64,000 nt of DNA from Alphaproteobacteria bacterium (GCA_030429725.1 JAUIEX010000002.1:5229-69228), one strand, 5' to 3'. Positions 31,475 through 51,590 are shown, counted from the first letter of the stretch. A program made the numbers and translations. Notes: generated by a model from the letters alone, not told the origin.

Positions 31475-32119
31475 CTATCTTTTAATCGCTTTAATTTCTG
31501 TCGTGAATTGCTGCGCTTTCTTATAATCTTCAAGTGCCTTTCTGGATTCACGCGTGCGGATACTTTCAAGCGCCCGGTGCGCACTGTTTTTAACCCAGTC
31601 ATCGTCATCCAACAACAGCCCTGCCAATTGAGGGACAAGCTCAGAGGCGGGTTTTCCAATCCTTCCCAAGGCATTCGCGGTTACTGCCCTGATTTCCGCA
31701 TCGTCATGGTTAATATAGCGCTTTAATGTTGGCAATGCATACACACCAAGACGCCGCATCCGCCCCAGCGCATATATGATATGGATTTCCATTTCTCGCT
31801 CACCTTCTTCCTCACGCAATAATTCTATCAGACGATGAATACCTTCCTTGCCCATATCTTCCAGCCCGTTGATCGCCTTCTCAAACATAACATTATTCGC
31901 TGAGCCAATATTATTGAGGTACATCTGCATGCGGAATTCACGCCGCTGCTCATCGGTAAAACCTTTCTGGGTTGGTGCTTCGGCCGCACGCTTGGCGGCT
32001 TCACTTTGCGGCTTTTCCTCGTCCTCTTCTTCTCCACCATGGGTGGAAGCCAGCACCGTATTCACAGGAGCGAAGGCAAAAAGCCCAACCACTAACAATA
32101 GTCTTATCCATTTTATCAC
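31475..32119 (-). CDS. Secreted HEAT-repeat protein
   Basis: Signal-peptide-like N-terminus (MIKWIRLLLVVGLFAFAPVNTVLAS), an acidic linker, then HEAT/PBS-lyase-type repeats (DAEIRAVTANALGRIG..., DDDWVKNSAHRALESI). The GTG start overlaps the stop of the upstream small ORF (GTGA). Confidence 0.6.
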   Translation of the reverse strand: MIKWIRLLLVVGLFAFAPVNTVLASTHGGEEEDEEKPQSEAAKRAAEAPTQKGFTDEQRREFRMQMYLNNIGSANNVMFEKAINGLEDMGKEGIHRLIELLREEEGEREMEIHIIYALGRMRRLGVYALPTLKRYINHDDAEIRAVTANALGRIGKPASELVPQLAGLLLDDDDWVKNSAHRALESIRTRESRKALEDYKKAQQFTTEIKAIKR

Positions 32120-32349
32120 TTCACCATCCTCCGAATTACCTCCCAGGCTAAGTATAGCATGGTGGGGATCAATGTCGCAATTAAAGCAGCTTTCACCCGC
32201 GTGGTCATAAACTCACTTCCCTGCCGAAGTTTGCGTAAATAGAACAGATCCTGCTGCATCTGCCGTGGCTCATCGGTATCAAAGCCCAGCCCAGACAGTG
32301 TTTCGTGAACAGTTTCATGGATGATCTTTTTCATTTCCTGCTGATTCAT
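32116..32349 (-). CDS. Small protein with a C-terminal transmembrane helix (phage-type, holin-like topology)
   Basis: A strong RBS (GGAGG) lies 4 nt (cgta) before ATG 32349, an internal start of ORF 32116..32412. The 77-aa product has a hydrophilic N-terminus and one C-terminal TM (VKAALIATLIPTMLYLAWEVI). The upstream part of the track ORF is built from a hairpin repeat. Confidence 0.5.
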   Translation of the reverse strand: MNQQEMKKIIHETVHETLSGLGFDTDEPRQMQQDLFYLRKLRQGSEFMTTRVKAALIATLIPTMLYLAWEVIRRMVK

Positions 32350-32457
32350 TACGCCTCCATAGTTTGCAGTCAGCGGTATGCAGTAAGCGGTGCGCCGTTT
32401 TTTATTCGTCATTGCGAGGAGCCATCAAGCGACGAAGCAATCTCCCGCCTCTTGAAG

Positions 32458-32478
32458 ACTGCTAACTGCTCACTAACT
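32458..32478. repeat. Degenerate 7-nt periodic array directly after the fibre-gene stop
   Basis: ACTGCTA ACTGCTC ACTAACT on the + strand, abutting the stop at 32480..32482. Confidence 0.5.
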
Positions 32479-32479
32479 C

Positions 32480-33373
32480 CTAACTTGGCTGCACCATCAA
32501 CCATGCCACGGTGGAAGCATCCGCCCCGTTGGTGGAGGTGATGGTGAAGGATGTGCCCACCGAACGCGCGGAAATATAAGGCACCCCCACCGTACCCGAG
32601 GGGCTTTGAATGGTCAGATAAATCCGGCTATCCGCCGCTACGGAAGCATTATTCACCACCGCCGTGCCGGAGGAGAGTGTGGCTGTGCCCATATGGGTGT
32701 TGGTATCTTCCTTCACCTTCAGCGCTCCGTCAACATTCACATCCTGCTTAAAATCCACATTACCCGTATCTTTATCCAGCACGAAAGATTGATAAAACGC
32801 GCTGCCATCGGGTGAAACTTTGAAAGAGAAATTATCTTCTCCAATCAGGCCAAATTCCGCTCTGCCGGAAAAATTATTCTGAAATACAAAACTGGCCGTA
32901 TCCGCCGTATCATCCTTGTTCAGCTTCACCTGCACATCATCCCCGTTATGGCTGAACAGAACGGCCGCACTGGCCACGCTCAGCTTGTTTGTGGCATCCG
33001 CCGTGGTGTTGATGCCCACCAGCGCGGCATTCTGAATGTTCTTCGCGGCAAACACCCATGCAGCCCCATCAAAGGCATAGAGCGCATCCTCATCCTTCAC
33101 CCACACGGCCAGCCCCTCATTGGGCTCTACAAACCGCCATATCTGCTCAAAATAGGCCAGCTGGCCTTCCTTCCCTGCCCAATCATCCGTCGCCGAAGCG
33201 CCCACAATATAAGCATCCCCTTCAGCCGGGCTGCCCGGCGGTGTGGCTAAATCCTTATCCTCCACCCCGCGATTCATCAGTGCGTCAATGCGCGTCAGCG
33301 CTTCATTCACCGTCACTTCCTTCTGCGCCTGGCTTTGCGCCACCAGGGCTAAATTCAAATTGGTTGTTGGCAT
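32480..33373 (-). CDS. DUF2793-like phage tail-fibre protein (GTA-associated)
   Basis: AGGAG RBS, then MPTTNLNLALVAQSQAQKEVTVNEALTRIDAL... (conserved N-terminal fibre-attachment-like region), then a Gly/Ser/Thr-rich beta-type C-terminus. ATG 33373 is internal to ORF 32480..33424. Confidence 0.65.
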   Translation of the reverse strand: MPTTNLNLALVAQSQAQKEVTVNEALTRIDALMNRGVEDKDLATPPGSPAEGDAYIVGASATDDWAGKEGQLAYFEQIWRFVEPNEGLAVWVKDEDALYAFDGAAWVFAAKNIQNAALVGINTTADATNKLSVASAAVLFSHNGDDVQVKLNKDDTADTASFVFQNNFSGRAEFGLIGEDNFSFKVSPDGSAFYQSFVLDKDTGNVDFKQDVNVDGALKVKEDTNTHMGTATLSSGTAVVNNASVAADSRIYLTIQSPSGTVGVPYISARSVGTSFTITSTNGADASTVAWLMVQPS

Positions 33374-49717: not shown

Positions 49718-49750
49718 AATCAGCCCTCCGGTAATATATGTTGCACTATG

Positions 49751-49779
49751 ATTATACCGCCAAACATAGCATTCAACAA
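49751..49779 (-). promoter_or_regulatory. Sigma70-like promoter of the dinJ-yafQ cassette
   Basis: On the minus strand: TTGTTG (49774..49779), a 17-nt spacer, then perfect TATAAT (49751..49756). The inverted repeat ATGCA-N8-TGCAT just upstream (49820..49837, + strand) could be an operator. Confidence 0.5.
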
Positions 49780-49837
49780 CATCCAATATCATTCATTAAA
49801 GTGCAAATACATCCAAAAACATGCAGATACATGCATT

Positions 49838-51262
49838 TTAGGATAAAGTACGCACCCGCATCACCGCCATTTTACGCAAAGCCGCCCAGTTCAGAAACTG
49901 CGTCACGCTATCCACCATGTCGTCATGGCTGGCATGCGGAAACATCAGCAGCTCAGAGAGAAAACCCTCCTTCCATCCGGCCTCATGCGGCAACATCACC
50001 CGTCCGGCTTCCATCGCCGTGATGGCGCTAAGCAATCGGCTTTCCTTATCTTTCACCGGTTGAATGGCCACCAGCGGAAAATGTTCCGCGCGCAATTCCT
50101 GCAGCAGGCTCTGCCCACTAGCCTTATCCTCAATAAGGATCACATCCGGCTTATCACGCGCTGCCAAACTGCGCACGGCGCGTTTTAATTCAGGAAACTC
50201 AACTTTCTGCCGCCAGATATCCTTCAAATAATAATGCCCCTCCGCCATCAGCCACACGCTGCACACGGAATAATCATTCGCCGCACCGGCTTTAATCGCC
50301 GTATCCCAGCTATGCACCAGCTGCCCTTCCGGCACATCATGATATTCCTTCAGCCATTCCACTCGCACCACCTGCCCTTCCGGCGGCACTGGGTTCTGCT
50401 GATATTGCGCAGCAAAGACAAAACTCCCCAGCTCCGCCTTCAGCGCTTTGAGCGTGGCTGCATCCTCCCGCATTGCGTGCAGAGGTTCACCCGCCGCGCG
50501 GCGATATTCAAACTCACCGCAGCGATATGTCACCGCCTCCCCTGCAATAGCAGGCAAACAAAGCTGCACCCAGCCTGCCTTTTTCAACACATGCGCCGTG
50601 GCATCCGCATGGTGCAAACGCTGCATCACCATCACCACCACCCCGCGCTTCTTATCGTTCAAACGCGGCAGAAAAACCTGATCAATCCACTGGCAGGTGC
50701 TTTGAATCTGCTCGGAGCTGGCCACTTCCTGCGGGTGGTGTGGGTCATCCAGAATTAAAAAATCTCCGCCCTCCCCAATCAGCGAACCACCCACAGAACT
50801 GGCCAGGCGAAAGCCATGCTGCGTGGTGGCAATTTTCTCTTTACGATTCTCACCGGTCATAATTTCCGCCGCCGGATACGCCGCCTGAAACCAGTCTGCG
50901 GTCAGCAGCGCGCGGCAATCCGCTGCATGTTTCAAACTCAGTGAATGGGAATAGCTGGCGCTGATGATCCGCCGCGCAGGGTTCTGCCCCAGCAGCCATG
51001 CCGGCCAGATAACATTGATTAATTGCGATTTGAGGTAGCGCGGAGGCAGATTAATCACCAGCCGCTTTATTTCGCCATGTTCACAGGCGGCCAGATGCGC
51101 CGCAATCAGCCGAAGATGCCAGTTCATCTGAAATTCCGCCGCCGGGTTCAGGGTTTGAAACCCCTTGCTCAGAAAGCTCTGAAACCGCGTCCGCAACAAG
51201 TGGTTCAACGCCTGCTGACGCAGCATTTCGCCTGGAATAATAATCATATAGAATCGCCTCAT
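49838..51262 (-). CDS. GTA g2-type terminase large subunit
   Basis: 474 aa, ...LRTRFQSFLSKGFQTLNPAAEFQMNWHLRLIAAHL... (conserved TerL N-terminus), Walker-B-like FLILDDPH, and a C-terminal nuclease region. Starts at 51247 or 51226 are also possible. Confidence 0.9.
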   Translation of the reverse strand: MRRFYMIIIPGEMLRQQALNHLLRTRFQSFLSKGFQTLNPAAEFQMNWHLRLIAAHLAACEHGEIKRLVINLPPRYLKSQLINVIWPAWLLGQNPARRIISASYSHSLSLKHAADCRALLTADWFQAAYPAAEIMTGENRKEKIATTQHGFRLASSVGGSLIGEGGDFLILDDPHHPQEVASSEQIQSTCQWIDQVFLPRLNDKKRGVVVMVMQRLHHADATAHVLKKAGWVQLCLPAIAGEAVTYRCGEFEYRRAAGEPLHAMREDAATLKALKAELGSFVFAAQYQQNPVPPEGQVVRVEWLKEYHDVPEGQLVHSWDTAIKAGAANDYSVCSVWLMAEGHYYLKDIWRQKVEFPELKRAVRSLAARDKPDVILIEDKASGQSLLQELRAEHFPLVAIQPVKDKESRLLSAITAMEAGRVMLPHEAGWKEGFLSELLMFPHASHDDMVDSVTQFLNWAALRKMAVMRVRTLS

Positions 51263-51590
51263 CTATCGCATTTAATTTTGCCACCATCGGCTGATCCGAT
51301 GCATCGCCTGAAGATAGAAGTTTAATTTTTTCAATAAGTTGTGACGTTTTTAAACTTGCAGAAATTATGGTTTCTTTTCCGCCAAAAACTTCCGCTAAAA
51401 TCTCGGCACGGCTTTCGGTTGATGGCTCATGCATCGCGTCATGCAACACACGCACAATACAGTCCACCACCTCGCCCAACAATTTTATACGTTGCTGATT
51501 AGCCAGTGCTGCACTTTGATTTTTAGAGATTTTTTGCGGATTTTTGTCTAAAGAAGTTGACGCATTACCGCCGACGAAGGGTAAAACCAT
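51081..51590 (-). CDS. Hypothetical ORF at the small-terminase (g1) position
   Basis: ATG ORF of 169 aa directly upstream of terL. Its last ~180 nt overlap terL out of frame. No recognisable motif; assignment is positional only. Confidence 0.3.
   Translation of the reverse strand: MVLPFVGGNASTSLDKNPQKISKNQSAALANQQRIKLLGEVVDCIVRVLHDAMHEPSTESRAEILAEVFGGKETIISASLKTSQLIEKIKLLSSGDASDQPMVAKLNAIDEAILYDYYSRRNAASAGVEPLVADAVSELSEQGVSNPEPGGGISDELASSADCGASGRL

Follow-up and report, generated by a model that had tools for sequence, protein, structure and literature searches.

Whether an interrupted head-tail gene cluster is a maintained gene transfer agent (GTA), a decaying relic, or the remnant of a phage is the question raised by positions 32116-51590 (minus strand) of the alphaproteobacterial DNA analyzed in this work, a stretch of 64,000 nucleotides referred to here as the window. 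In profile searches with Pfam, NCBIfam, and PHROG, the structural genes of this locus were found to be collinear in the order of RcGTA, the GTA of Rhodobacter capsulatus (g1-g15) (Table 1). The best explanation, which we consider probable, is a chromosomal RcGTA-type head-tail cluster, i.e., a domesticated phage particle machine, that has been invaded with its open reading frames (ORFs) retained. The locus is thus probably a complete Rhodobacter-type GTA cluster (domesticated phage head and tail) of a poorly sampled alphaproteobacterium, with small mobile repeats, two toxin-antitoxin pairs, and a tRNA gene as the invaders.

Table 1. Genes of the cluster and elements lying within it (window coordinates)
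Feature	Position	Strand	Evidence or remark
orf169, candidate g1 (small terminase)	51081..51590	-	Position only; overlaps annotated terL start by 182 nt
terL (g2), large terminase, full length	49838..51262	-	phrog_38 residues 19-466, E 8e-95; Terminase_6C; TIGR01630
RelB	49457-49792	-	PF04221, 60 bits
YafQ/RelE	49123-49410	-	PF15738, 114 bits; TIGR02385, 94 bits
Portal (g3)	47711..48976	-	PF04860, 286 bits; TIGR01537, 207 bits
Type-B element	47586..47664		Portal-protease spacer; paired termini and internal hairpins
Type-A M7	47398..47530		14 nt upstream of protease ATG
Prohead protease (g4)	46826..47383	-	PF04586, 120 bits; TIGR01543
Type-A M6	46672..46828		Between protease and capsid; TA/TA duplication
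Major capsid protein (g5), HK97 type	45394..46584	-	TIGR01554, 356 bits
Type-A M5	45224..45381		Left end truncated; 12 nt downstream of capsid stop
orf136, conserved gene between capsid and g6	44720..45130	-	phrog_5707, full length, E 1e-28
Type-A M4	44502..44670		Between orf136 and g6; TA/TA duplication
g6, adaptor	43900-44442	-	TIGR02215
g7, head completion	43545-43898	-	PF05521
g8, tail terminator	43144-43548	-	PF11367 (formerly DUF3168)
g9, tail tube	42725-43135	-	PF06199
Orphan ORF, 98 aa	42419-42715	-	g10/g10.1/g11 slot by position and size alone
Orphan ORF, 228 aa	41701-42387	-	g10/g10.1/g11 slot by position and size alone
g12, distal tail protein (DUF2460)	41038..41640	-	PF09343, 258 bits; TIGR02217, 241 bits
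Decayed copy of tRNA-Arg 3' half (att-like scar)	41002-41031		Plus strand; abuts g12 stop; direct repeat, last 19 nt identical
tRNA-Arg(CCT)	40822-40898	+	ARAGORN; Rfam, 71.6 bits; antisense to cluster
g13, baseplate hub	39936..40778	-	PF09931 plus PF09356; TIGR02218, 269 bits
g14, NlpC/P60 peptidase	39091..39726	-	TIGR02219 at residues 6-89 only, score below cutoff
Type-A M3	39405 to ~39474		Inside g14, in frame
Type-B element	39202-39294		Inside g14, in frame
g15, megatron, multidomain baseplate protein	35043..38693	-	NF048004, 1194 bits; GTA_TIM, Phage-tail_3, Rcc01698_C
g15-fiber spacer (part)	34139..35034		M2, orf66, CtrA-like box, M1
Type-A M2	34846-35034		g15-fiber spacer
orf66	34497-34697	+	Apparently two hydrophobic segments; g15-fiber spacer
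CtrA-like box TTAAGTTATAATTAA	34350-34364		g15-fiber spacer
Type-A M1	34139-34292		g15-fiber spacer
HepT	33711-34046	+	PF01934
MntA	33427-33714	+	PF01909/PF18765
DUF2793 tail-fiber-like protein, K1-lyase_C C-terminal domain	32480..33373	-	PF10983, 105 bits; PF24146, 92 bits; PHROG tail-fiber families
orf98, conserved small ORF downstream of fiber gene	32116..32412	-	phrog_6420, E 5e-15

Gene content and order

The recognizable set comprises terminase, portal, protease, capsid, adaptor, head completion, tail terminator, tube, distal tail, hub, peptidase, megatron, and fiber genes. An earlier reading made from the DNA alone (here, the sequence-only reading) had named these genes on the minus strand, and each was recovered at its assigned position and matches its assigned family by profile HMM. 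Its assignment of gene content and order to RcGTA was likewise borne out, with the megatron scoring above the 800-bit cutoff of the NCBIfam equivalog NF048004. The tight packing that it described for the g6-g9 block (42725-44442) was measured as gaps of 1, -4 (an ATGA overlap), and 8 nt. Upstream, residues 20-473 of terL align to the terL of a compact related cluster (L004), and orf169, which has no match in Pfam, NCBIfam, or PHROG, shows weak collinear similarity to the 114-aa ORF that immediately precedes terL in L004 (E 0.004, single comparison). An identical capsid protein occurs on an independent Logan unitig, which ends inside elements M5 and M6. The possibility that orf136 is an insertion was ruled out by its phrog_5707 match and by homologues occupying the same position in L004 and in a second related cluster, L006; an orf98 homologue in L004 likewise lies downstream of the fiber gene.

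Every gene with homologues could be aligned over its full length with relatives, with 0 frameshifts and 0 stops, and the cluster contains ~14.3 kb of coding sequence free of either. Between g9 and g12, in the slot where genes for a tail assembly chaperone and a tape measure (g10, g10.1, and g11) would be expected, lie two orphan ORFs, neither of which has a Pfam, NCBIfam, or PHROG match or a tblastn match in relatives; for the 228-aa ORF, a homologue was not found among 1.84 billion representatives. The earlier claim that every structural ORF is intact therefore holds for genes with homologues, is not verifiable in this slot, and needs qualifying for g14 (see below). The failure to recognize chaperone and tape-measure genes, with an orphan 228-aa ORF in their place, counts against the explanation favored here.

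Comparison with known GTA loci

The locus shares with RcGTA and the RcGTA-like large clusters its gene families, their order on a single strand, the megatron g15, a GC content elevated over that of the host, the lack of lysogeny and replication genes, a chromosomal location, and housekeeping flanks. It differs from RcGTA in length (~19 versus ~15 kb), in its interruption at 9 junctions, in having no detectable homologues of g10, g10.1, and g11, and in carrying a further conserved ORF (phrog_5707) downstream of the capsid gene, with the DUF2793 fiber and phrog_6420 genes appended. Large clusters have been described in Rhodobacterales, Rhizobiales, Caulobacterales, and Sphingomonadales (PMC5721377, PMC6821227), whereas the MutS relatives of the present host lie outside these orders. 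The best MutS matches, none above 53%, come from Rhodospirillales-type genera and Rickettsiales-labeled metagenome genomes. The GTA proteins group with metagenome genomes labeled Rickettsiales or Alphaproteobacteria, those labeled Rickettsiales being closest (neighbor-joining tree; g12 identity of 60-68%). At a 90% identity threshold, all tested proteins are singletons, and the host appears to be a deep-branching, very sparsely sampled alphaproteobacterium.

GTA genes also occur scattered in Rickettsiales and Holosporaceae (Lang and Beatty 2007; Shakya 2017; George et al. 2022, PMC9254644), and the present locus resembles these sets in this proximity and in the splitting of related loci by foreign genes. 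The described Rickettsiales carry several small clusters, with tail parts often missing, in contrast to the single collinear locus and full tail and baseplate set seen here. Among related clusters, L004 is compact (14.8 kb), and others (L002, L007-L011, L015, and L028) are split by intervening foreign genes spanning 1-7 kb, in keeping with the fragmentation reported for Rickettsiales (PMC9254644, PMC5721377). Measured against L004, the stretching of the operon to ~19 kb by repeats, toxin-antitoxin cassettes, and a tRNA gene was confirmed.

Distinction from a prophage

A defective prophage, or what remains of a phage that had an RcGTA-like structural module, would account for structural families that also occur in true phages (PHROG matches) and for a tRNA gene with a duplicated 3' end, an arrangement typical of integrase sites. 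The att-like scar, however, is internal, lying between g12 and g13, and brackets 103 nt only, not the cluster. No integrase, repressor, replication, or lysis gene was found within the 64 kb, and integrase and lysogeny genes are absent from the 30 kb on the plus-strand low side and the 12 kb on the high side. The sequence-only reading had likewise reported no integrase, repressor, or replication gene in or beside the cluster. The flanks carry housekeeping genes: on one side parE/gyrB-like, RTX, hisF, methyltransferase, MFS transporter, PNP oxidase, and TolQ/R genes, and on the other a HEAT-repeat gene, rpsT, mutS, malic enzyme, rplQ, and rpoA. Many related genomes carry the same gene set, and the megatron equivalog and GC excess are both characteristic of GTAs. 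GC and GC3 reach 54.7% and 60.1% in the GTA genes versus 49.2% and 49.9% in 24 host genes (Mann-Whitney p about 0.001); such an excess is reported for RcGTA-like clusters in PMC6821227 (citing Shakya 2017). A prophage origin is thus very improbable, and the assignment as a GTA-type locus, as first proposed, is well supported by gene order, megatron, flanks, missing lysogeny genes, and GC excess. As a point against the GTA explanation, the flanking genes are shared with no relative, and regulators (CtrA/GafA), lysis genes, and head spikes do not occur in the window.

Toxin-antitoxin cassettes and tRNA gene

Both toxin-antitoxin cassettes and the antisense tRNA gene noted earlier were recovered by profile matches and by ARAGORN and Rfam, respectively. 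The type II cassette RelB/YafQ (49123..49792) has entered the terL-portal junction in the same orientation as the cluster; relatives lack it there, and yafQ has a GC3 of 0.365, compared to 0.60 for the GTA genes. MntA/HepT (33427-34046) runs antisense to the cluster and lies between the copies of a perfect 38-nt direct repeat (33347-33384 and 34071-34108; 100% identity) that contains the fiber ribosome-binding site and first nine codons. No tRNA gene was found in the loci of 14 of 15 relatives; the exception, L016, carries a tRNA-Met that is unrelated and lies ~5 kb away from its solitary g12 gene. CtrA-like boxes such as that in the g15-fiber spacer are no more frequent than expected by chance.

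Palindromic elements

The seven MITE-like repeats reported earlier were confirmed as seven type-A elements, with 13 termini matching TAACTCCCCC-N5-GGGGGAGTC (0 expected by chance). That reading had overlooked that one type-A and one second-family element lie inside g14, as well as the type-B copy at 47586-47664, which shares its architecture and its GTCATTCC...GGGATGAC ends with the g14 copy. M5 and M6 are sisters (89% and 97% identity over two halves). A 2-bp TA duplication is present at M1, M4, and M6, and CA/CA at M7, where the ends are degenerate. The TAG stop codon of the protease gene is built from M6 plus its TA duplication; excision of M6 in silico lengthens the protease ORF by 20 codons.

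In their length (130-190 bp), terminal inverted repeats, lack of an ORF, multiple copies, and 2-bp TA duplication, type-A elements resemble bacterial MITEs derived from IS630/Tc1-mariner. A link to IS630 is suggested by the TA duplication only. As differences, a cognate transposase was not found in the window, and type A combines a variable inner hairpin with ends that stay conserved in organisms ranging over 30-67% GC. The type-A half-element also resembles Rfam RF01762 (whalefall-1) in its conserved CUCUCC-loop-GGAGAG hairpin, variable second hairpin, and GGGUGAGG tail. It differs in being one half of an inverted-repeat MITE instead of an independent RNA gene, and RF01762 scores of 23.4 and 21.7 bits (M7 among these matches) fall below the gathering score of 37 by which Rfam defines membership.

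Palindromic elements sit at every head-module junction (portal/protease, protease/capsid, capsid/orf136, and orf136/g6) and, as sense RNA, have folding energies between -55 and -71 kcal/mol (z from -3 to -6.7), that of M7 being -70.8 kcal/mol (z -6.7). They might therefore have been co-opted as intercistronic RNA stabilizers, attenuators, or insulators that set head-protein stoichiometry, with the toxin-antitoxin modules and tRNA guarding the locus against deletion. Consistent with this idea, the distant relative L066 has, at the same site between portal and protease, a related element that shares the inner hairpin GAATCTTTGATTC and lies 19 nt ahead of the protease ATG (14 nt here), a comparable pair of hairpins separates capsid from g6 in the Rhizobium cluster L023, and the terminal stem of M7 is altered but still self-complementary (CTCTCCC/GGGAGAG). 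Yet L004 and L006 are compact and have no elements at these junctions, so the elements are not a conserved part of the system, and clustering of MITEs in permissive intergenic sites is well known (PMC10969869). We regard co-option as improbable.

In-frame insertions in g14

Alignments to 10 plus 9 homologues show that g14 is open and contains two in-frame mobile-element insertions, one of each type. These account for ~63 extra residues, giving 211 aa versus ~140 aa in homologues (126-175 aa in all but one of 120 listed, of 202 found). Residues C31, H124, and H183 are invariant across the aligned homologues. In an AlphaFold model (pTM 0.74), the core has pLDDT values of >90 and the inserts 36-61, which places the inserts as floppy loops on an intact predicted catalytic core. 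In L066, a different repeat has independently entered the same g14 loop in frame. The statement that no structural ORF is broken thus stands in that the g14 insertions are in frame, stop free, and spare C31, H124, and H183; it requires amendment for the ~63 foreign residues and for the unidentifiable chaperone and tape-measure genes.

In-frame insertion into protein-coding genes is characteristic of Rickettsia palindromic elements (RPEs; reviewed in PMC10969869). The present case is alike in having two palindromic mobile elements in frame in one protein, their peptide segments predicted as loops, and the catalytic core kept. Types A and B, with their own ends, appear to be sequence families different from RPEs, and a single gene, g14, is affected within the window.

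Selection or decay

The ancestral locus was probably a compact operon of about 15-16 kb, since invaded by seven TA-duplicating palindromic type-A MITEs, two type-B elements, two type II toxin-antitoxin cassettes, and a tRNA-Arg with its att-like scar. Insertions would have been retained only where no protein was destroyed, 10 between genes and 2 in frame in low-confidence loops of g14. Of these 12 events, 10 lie in the ~12% of the locus that is non-coding; for at most 2 of 12 to fall in coding DNA, when ~88% of the pre-insertion locus is coding, P is about 4.5e-8. Those between genes occupy the loosely spaced head module and distal tail end, with none in the tightly spaced g6-g12 block. This bias points to selection on the ORFs or to intergenic targeting, and a preference of MITEs for intergenic AT-rich TA sites could explain part of it. 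The continued selection proposed earlier accordingly gains support from the bias and from the two stop-free coding hits, and this support is indirect.

The same features could mark a relic under relaxed selection, at an early stage of Rickettsiales-type fragmentation and loss, whose ORFs are open owing to recent invasion. All 13 type-A termini and both type-B copies of the window lie within the cluster (nine elements, versus 0 in the other 45 kb), and the locus could thus be a tolerated dumping ground under relaxed constraint. Terminator-like sites number 43 (21.6 +/- 4.5 expected), g14 carries 63 foreign residues, and the tape-measure and chaperone genes are unrecognizable. The perfect MntA/HepT repeat indicates that this insertion is very recent, and relatives exhibit progressive splitting and loss (L066 lacks g8-g12 at the locus; Ehrlichia keeps g12 only). 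Against decay, ~14.3 kb of coding sequence has remained open while the insertions fell almost only in non-coding DNA, the GC3 excess is maintained, and g14 keeps its catalytic triad and core. M7 is degenerate, hence older, yet the adjoining ORFs are intact; with the 100% identical MntA/HepT repeat, this suggests an invasion spread over time with ORFs staying open. Decay is therefore unlikely, if less so than co-option.

Under the favored explanation of an invaded GTA cluster with retained ORFs, break-up of the single-operon layout is plausible, given the antisense tRNA and MntA/HepT genes, the very stable MITE RNA folds, and a terminator-like hairpin with a U-run on the M7 sense strand (47456-47436). 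This last feature, lying between portal and protease, in itself weighs against the favored explanation. Transcription may now proceed as several units or by read-through across very stable RNA hairpins. The structural proteins would still be under purifying selection, from which we infer that particles, or a repurposed derivative of them, may still be made.

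Gene content and order of the cluster

The cluster carries 12 genes that match Rhodobacter capsulatus gene transfer agent (RcGTA) families at the family level and lie in RcGTA order (g2 to g9 and g12 to g15). The list of open reading frames (ORFs) and the profile scans recovered every gene named by a sequence-only reading in its place on the minus strand, with the family proposed for it. The 12 clustered, collinear homologs (Pfam, NCBIfam, or PHROG profile matches) constitute a large cluster in the sense of Shakya 2017, i.e., at least 9 RcGTA homologs with neighbors fewer than 15 ORFs apart. 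Within the g6-g9 block, the intergenic gaps are 1, −4, and 8 nt. An ORF between the capsid gene and g6 (orf136) matches phrog_5707, and its counterparts in L004 and L006, two compact related loci, are likewise located there; as it is kept in relatives and in PHROGs, its being an inserted gene was ruled out. Lying upstream of terL, orf169 is by position a candidate, albeit a weak one, for the small terminase.

The earlier statement that every structural ORF is intact holds insofar as the ORFs are open. It requires amendment in two places: g14 carries two in-frame insertions, and the slot for the chaperone and tape measure genes (g10, g10.1, and g11) is occupied by ORFs of 98 and 228 aa that belong to no recognizable family. 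Neither ORF gave a Pfam, NCBIfam, or PHROG match or was found in relatives, and the 228-aa ORF has zero homologs among 1.84 billion representative proteins. Because tail chaperones and tape measures evolve fast, missing similarity does not prove missing function, and both ORFs are purely position- and size-based candidates for the chaperone/tape measure role.

Features of the GTA-type cluster and its surroundings
Feature	Position	Strand	Assignment or location
terL		minus	phrog_38, residues 19-466
Portal, protease, capsid		minus	HK97 type
g6 adaptor, g7 head completion, g8 tail terminator, g9 tube		minus	g8, PF11367 (former DUF3168); g9, PF06199
orf136	44720-45130		between capsid and g6
g12		minus	DUF2460/TIGR02217
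g13 hub		minus	PF09931 and PF09356, TIGR02218
g14		minus	TIGR02219, partial match
g15 megatron (Rcc01698 family)		minus	NF048004 equivalog, 1194 bits (cutoff 800), full length 1-1215
Fiber		minus	DUF2793 and K1-lyase_C domain
M1 (type A)	34139-34292		g15-fiber spacer
M2 (type A)	34846-35034		g15-fiber spacer
M3 (type A)	39405 to about 39474		inside g14
M4 (type A)	44502-44670		orf136-g6 spacer
M5 (type A)	45224-45381		downstream of capsid; left end truncated
M6 (type A)	46672-46828		protease-capsid spacer
M7 (type A)	47398-47530		portal-protease spacer
Type B, two copies	39202-39294 and 47586-47664		ends GTCATTCC...GGGATGAC
RelB/YafQ	49123-49792		toxin-antitoxin cassette
MntA/HepT	33427-34046	plus	toxin-antitoxin cassette
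Direct repeat D4	33347-33384 and 34071-34108		brackets MntA/HepT
tRNA-Arg(CCT)	40822-40898	plus	antisense to cluster
tRNA-Arg 3'-end repeat	40869-40898 and 41002-41031		second copy abuts g12 stop
CtrA-type box	34350-34364		TTAAGTTATAATTAA
66-aa ORF	34497-34697	plus	no family match
42-aa ORF	38849-38977	plus	g14-g15 spacer
RTX calcium-binding repeat protein	51660-53417	minus	directly upstream of cluster
Flank, one side			parE-like, RTX, hisF, methyltransferase, MFS transporter, PNP oxidase, TolQ/R, GshA
Flank, other side			HEAT-repeat gene, rpsT, mutS, malic enzyme, rplQ, rpoA, adk, secY

A probable GTA-type locus rather than a prophage

RcGTA has an HK97-fold head, filled with host DNA by terminase-driven headful packaging, and a short noncontractile tail; its baseplate consists of hub and megatron, and the g14 peptidase serves entry. 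If functional, the present locus would operate like RcGTA. Its flanks, megatron match, and GC excess together support the earlier view that this is a locus of the GTA type, not a prophage. Pfam scans of the large ORFs of the 64-kb window revealed no integrase, repressor, replication, or lysis module in or beside the cluster, and the flanks hold housekeeping genes only. No att sites bracket the cluster; the sole att-like repeat, at the tRNA-Arg 3' end, is internal and spans 103 nt. The GTA genes have a GC content of 54.7% versus 49.2% for the host and a GC3 of 60.1% versus 49.9% (P of about 0.001, with the 24 flanking genes only as the host sample), and a GC excess over the host has been reported for RcGTA-like clusters (PMC6821227).

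Within 10 kb on either side of 29 related loci, no flanking protein is shared with the window except RTX repeats, a weak comparison given how distant these relatives are (g12 identity of at most 68%). Besides the RTX protein upstream of the cluster, RTX-like ORFs occur between g12 and g13 in the related locus L010 (936-1955) and near g12 in L002 (1046-1629). Farther out, the cumulative GC skew peaks at about 24 to 26 kb, and minus-strand genes and a plus-strand ribosomal protein operon with rpoA and rplQ run toward each other at about 25400-26000, meeting at a bidirectional terminator. No Escherichia coli-type dif site was found near the skew turn (about 26 kb), which may reflect a gene-strand effect and not a replication terminus.

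Two families of palindromic elements

The seven MITE-like repeats noticed from the sequence proved to be one palindromic family, type A, whose 13 termini pair up as seven elements (M1 to M7). With up to 3 mismatches allowed, the pattern TAACTCCCCC-N5-GGGGGAGTC that marks the termini occurs at 13 distinct sites, all within 34139-47530, with 0 expected by chance. The seven copies measure 70 to 189 nt, and each half-element consists, in order, of a conserved hairpin, a variable hairpin, and GGTGGGGG. Target duplications read TA/TA at M1, M4, and M6 and CA/CA at M7. Being short, multicopy, and transposase free, with terminal inverted repeats and a target site duplication, these elements qualify as MITEs; no cognate transposase is present in the window. 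From the duplication pattern we infer a link to IS630 and classify type A as TA-duplicating, IS630/Tc1-like MITEs. One of them now ends a structural gene: the protease TAG stop consists of the terminal base of M6 and its TA duplication, and precise excision of M6 would lengthen the protease ORF by 20 codons.

Measured from the terL start to the stop of orf98 (the ORF downstream of the fiber gene), the locus spans 19.1 kb, of which the identified insertions make up about 2.8 kb; in L004, terL to fiber spans 14.8 kb. All nine palindromic elements (types A and B) lie within 19 kb of the 64-kb window, for which the uniform-placement probability is about 2e-5, and the window likewise has several intergenic regions outside the cluster. 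Copies are alike locally (89% and 97% identity for the M5/M6 halves, 88% for the M1/M2 right halves, and 89% for the M1/M4 left halves), which suggests that type-A copies spread locally or underwent gene conversion. MITEs are known to cluster in permissive regions (PMC10969869).

Type-A ends are also present in 36 metagenome contigs (30 to 67% GC), often at contig ends, and about 31 of the 36 display the architecture of hairpin, variable hairpin, and GGTGGGGGG. Since these contigs contain zero GTA genes and share no further similarity with the window, the type-A family is not GTA specific. The type-A half (window 47434-47531; contigs L030 to L065) is built like the whalefall-1 motif, with a conserved hairpin, a variable hairpin, and a GGGUGAGG tail. 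Against Rfam RF01762 (whalefall-1), the M7 halves score 23.4 and 21.7 bits, below the gathering threshold of 37; whalefall-1 may represent one half of MITEs from a widespread superfamily. Heptamer-like tandem repeats of GCAGTAG, CTGCAAA, and TTCTGAC (47680-47710, 34918-34946, and 44610-44625) lie beside or inside type-A elements, as does a GGTTATA tandem repeat in the related contig L017 (100-800). We found no literature on the repeat sequence.

A type-A MITE also occupies the portal-protease spacer of the distant relative L066 (GCA_964588995.1, 4485-4613), 19 nt upstream of the protease ATG, and its inner hairpin is that of M7. Common descent of the two elements is unlikely, given that the genomes have about 60 to 69% protein identity and the L066 ends are fresh and perfect; we favor separate insertions at a permissive site. 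Because the compact loci L004 and L006 have no elements at head-module junctions, permissive-site insertion is likewise preferred over a conserved regulatory role. In L023 (Rhizobium wenxiniae, 5560-5760), an inverted pair of TCTCCCCC-loop-GGGGGAGA hairpins with G-rich/C-rich flanks lies between capsid and g6, a position resembling that of M5 and M4.

Toxin-antitoxin cassettes and a tRNA gene

Both proposed toxin-antitoxin cassettes are borne out as adjacent type II pairs above family cutoffs (RelB, 60 bits; YafQ, 114 bits; MntA [NTP_transf_2], 41 bits; HepT, 62 bits). The D4 direct repeat that brackets MntA/HepT contains the ribosome-binding site and first nine codons of the fiber gene, leaving a "ghost start" upstream of the cassette. 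As this 38-nt repeat is exact, the insertion of MntA/HepT is probably recent.

The antisense tRNA gene was confirmed by ARAGORN and Rfam as the sole tRNA in the window. A second copy of its last 30 nt lies 133 nt downstream, matches exactly over the final 19 nt, and is located inside the cluster, not at its edge. This repeat looks like an integrase-type scar or a decayed tandem tRNA copy; the similarity seems to extend back toward the anticodon-stem region. A role for the tRNA in serving GTA codon usage was unsupported, AGG occurring at 3.1 (GTA) versus 1.7 (host) per 1,000 codons on counts of 15 and 18.

Across the 64 kb, CtrA boxes (TTAA-N7-TTAA) number 2 versus 1.1 expected, which is chance level. 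About 130 nt downstream of the cluster's sole full box lies the 66-aa ORF, apparently with two hydrophobic segments and of holin-like size.

In-frame inserts in the g14 peptidase

At 211 aa, g14 is longer than its homologs, which in the 120 listed of 202 found measure 126 to 175 aa with one exception. In homologue alignments, the excess resolves into two insertions that coincide with M3 and the type-B copy B1, both keeping frame. The catalytic residues Cys31, His124, and His183 are invariant. AlphaFold gave a pTM of 0.74, with core blocks at a pLDDT of >90 and the inserts at 55 to 61 (about residues 81 to 110) and 36 to 52 (residues 135 to 173). In view of this low pLDDT, the inserts look like extruded loops in the predicted structure, compatible with the core fold. 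They thus display the RPE-like pattern of a palindromic element within an ORF, with frame kept and fold compatible, RPE being a Rickettsia feature (PMC10969869).

The sole other long homolog among those listed, P0002 (193 aa, L066 10001-10582), has a different, repeat-derived peptide in the insert-1 loop, apparently acquired independently at a site that tolerates such events. The L066 locus lacks g8 to g12. An exact look-up of g14 in assemblies returned nothing on record. In the spacer between g14 and g15, the 42-aa ORF encodes one hydrophobic helix and a charged tail and resembles a type I toxin. By eye, an AU-rich hairpin apparently follows this ORF and lies just downstream of the g14 stop, and a promoter-like site, TTGCAT-16-TAATTA, apparently precedes g15.

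Insertion bias, selection, and transcription

The insertion map bears on selection acting on the ORFs. With the identified insertions removed, the locus is about 88% coding, yet only 2 of 12 insertion events fall in coding sequence (binomial P for two or fewer, 4.5e-8). Both coding insertions are in frame and without stops, and the tightly spaced g6-g12 block has received zero insertions. A preference of the elements themselves for intergenic TA sites would yield a bias of this kind and probably contributes to it. The M7 ends are degenerate and the repeat flanking the toxin-antitoxin cassette is perfect, so the invasion appears to have extended over time, with 14.3 kb of ORFs remaining open.

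One uninterrupted message for the cluster is unlikely, judging from several features together: the antisense tRNA and MntA/HepT, a sense-strand hairpin followed by a U-run in M7 (47456-47436), a twofold excess of terminator-like sites (43 versus a shuffle expectation of 21.6), and the stable folds of the elements as sense RNA (−55 to −71 kcal/mol). A scan for sigma-70 promoters gave a count below the shuffle expectation. A joint reading by co-option, in which hairpins at all head-module junctions (one with a terminator) would split the operon by stability or termination and the toxin-antitoxin cassettes and tRNA-Arg would act as anti-deletion anchors, holding a complete GTA locus while relatives lose or scatter theirs, strikes us as improbable.

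Relatives and host

Among 185,579 species genomes, the closest loci belong to metagenome genomes labeled Rickettsiales or Alphaproteobacteria (g12 identity, 60 to 68%), compared with 49 to 52% for Anaplasmataceae/Ehrlichia and 44 to 53% for Rhizobiales, Rhodobacterales, and Sphingomonadales. In a neighbor-joining tree of g12 and g13, a rough one without support values, the window falls inside the metagenome-genome group. Each of five proteins (g14, capsid, megatron, MutS, and RpoA) is a singleton when about 15 billion proteins are grouped at 90% identity, and the best MutS match reaches 53%, with named matches in Thalassospira, Stellaceae, Oceanibaculum, Telmatospirillum, Caenispirillum, and a Rickettsiales metagenome genome. 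These singletons and MutS values point to a deep, sparsely sampled alphaproteobacterium as the host. By best matches, not phylogeny, it would lie outside the orders with described large RcGTA-like clusters. Apart from the window, the capsid gene turned up solely on one 1.45-kb unitig, which breaks within MITEs.

L004 is complete and compact, and other relatives are split by 1 to 7 kb of foreign genes. Four related genomes (L007, L008, L009, and L011; positions of about 2 to 10 kb) have about 7 kb between g8/g9 and g12. In L007 and L009 this gap holds ORFs of 330 to 814 aa, and those read look helical and of low complexity, like secreted effectors.

Implications for GTA evolution

Complete RcGTA-like clusters have been reported only from one large alphaproteobacterial subclade, and the time at which the element arose has been estimated from that distribution (PMC5721377, PMC6821227). 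RcGTA-like genes of Rickettsiales/Holosporaceae are usually scattered and tail poor (PMC9254644, PMC5721377, PMC10732058), and Kogay et al. found zero RcGTA-like clusters in 70 Rickettsiales genomes (PMC6821227). In contrast to these sets, the present locus is complete and collinear and resides in a neighboring, poorly sampled group. Its single components are all ordinary; in the literature, we came across no GTA cluster reported to contain MITEs, toxin-antitoxin cassettes, or a tRNA.

The concept of the GTA itself is unchanged by this locus. The in-frame elements of g14 extend the RPE phenomenon of Rickettsia to a GTA structural enzyme, and the dozen independent insertions amount to a natural experiment, marking the GTA junctions and protein loops that tolerate disruption. 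Together with relatives such as L004, the locus represents complete, collinear GTA-like clusters in a separate, poorly sampled group, which bear on the age of the element and its mode of fragmentation.
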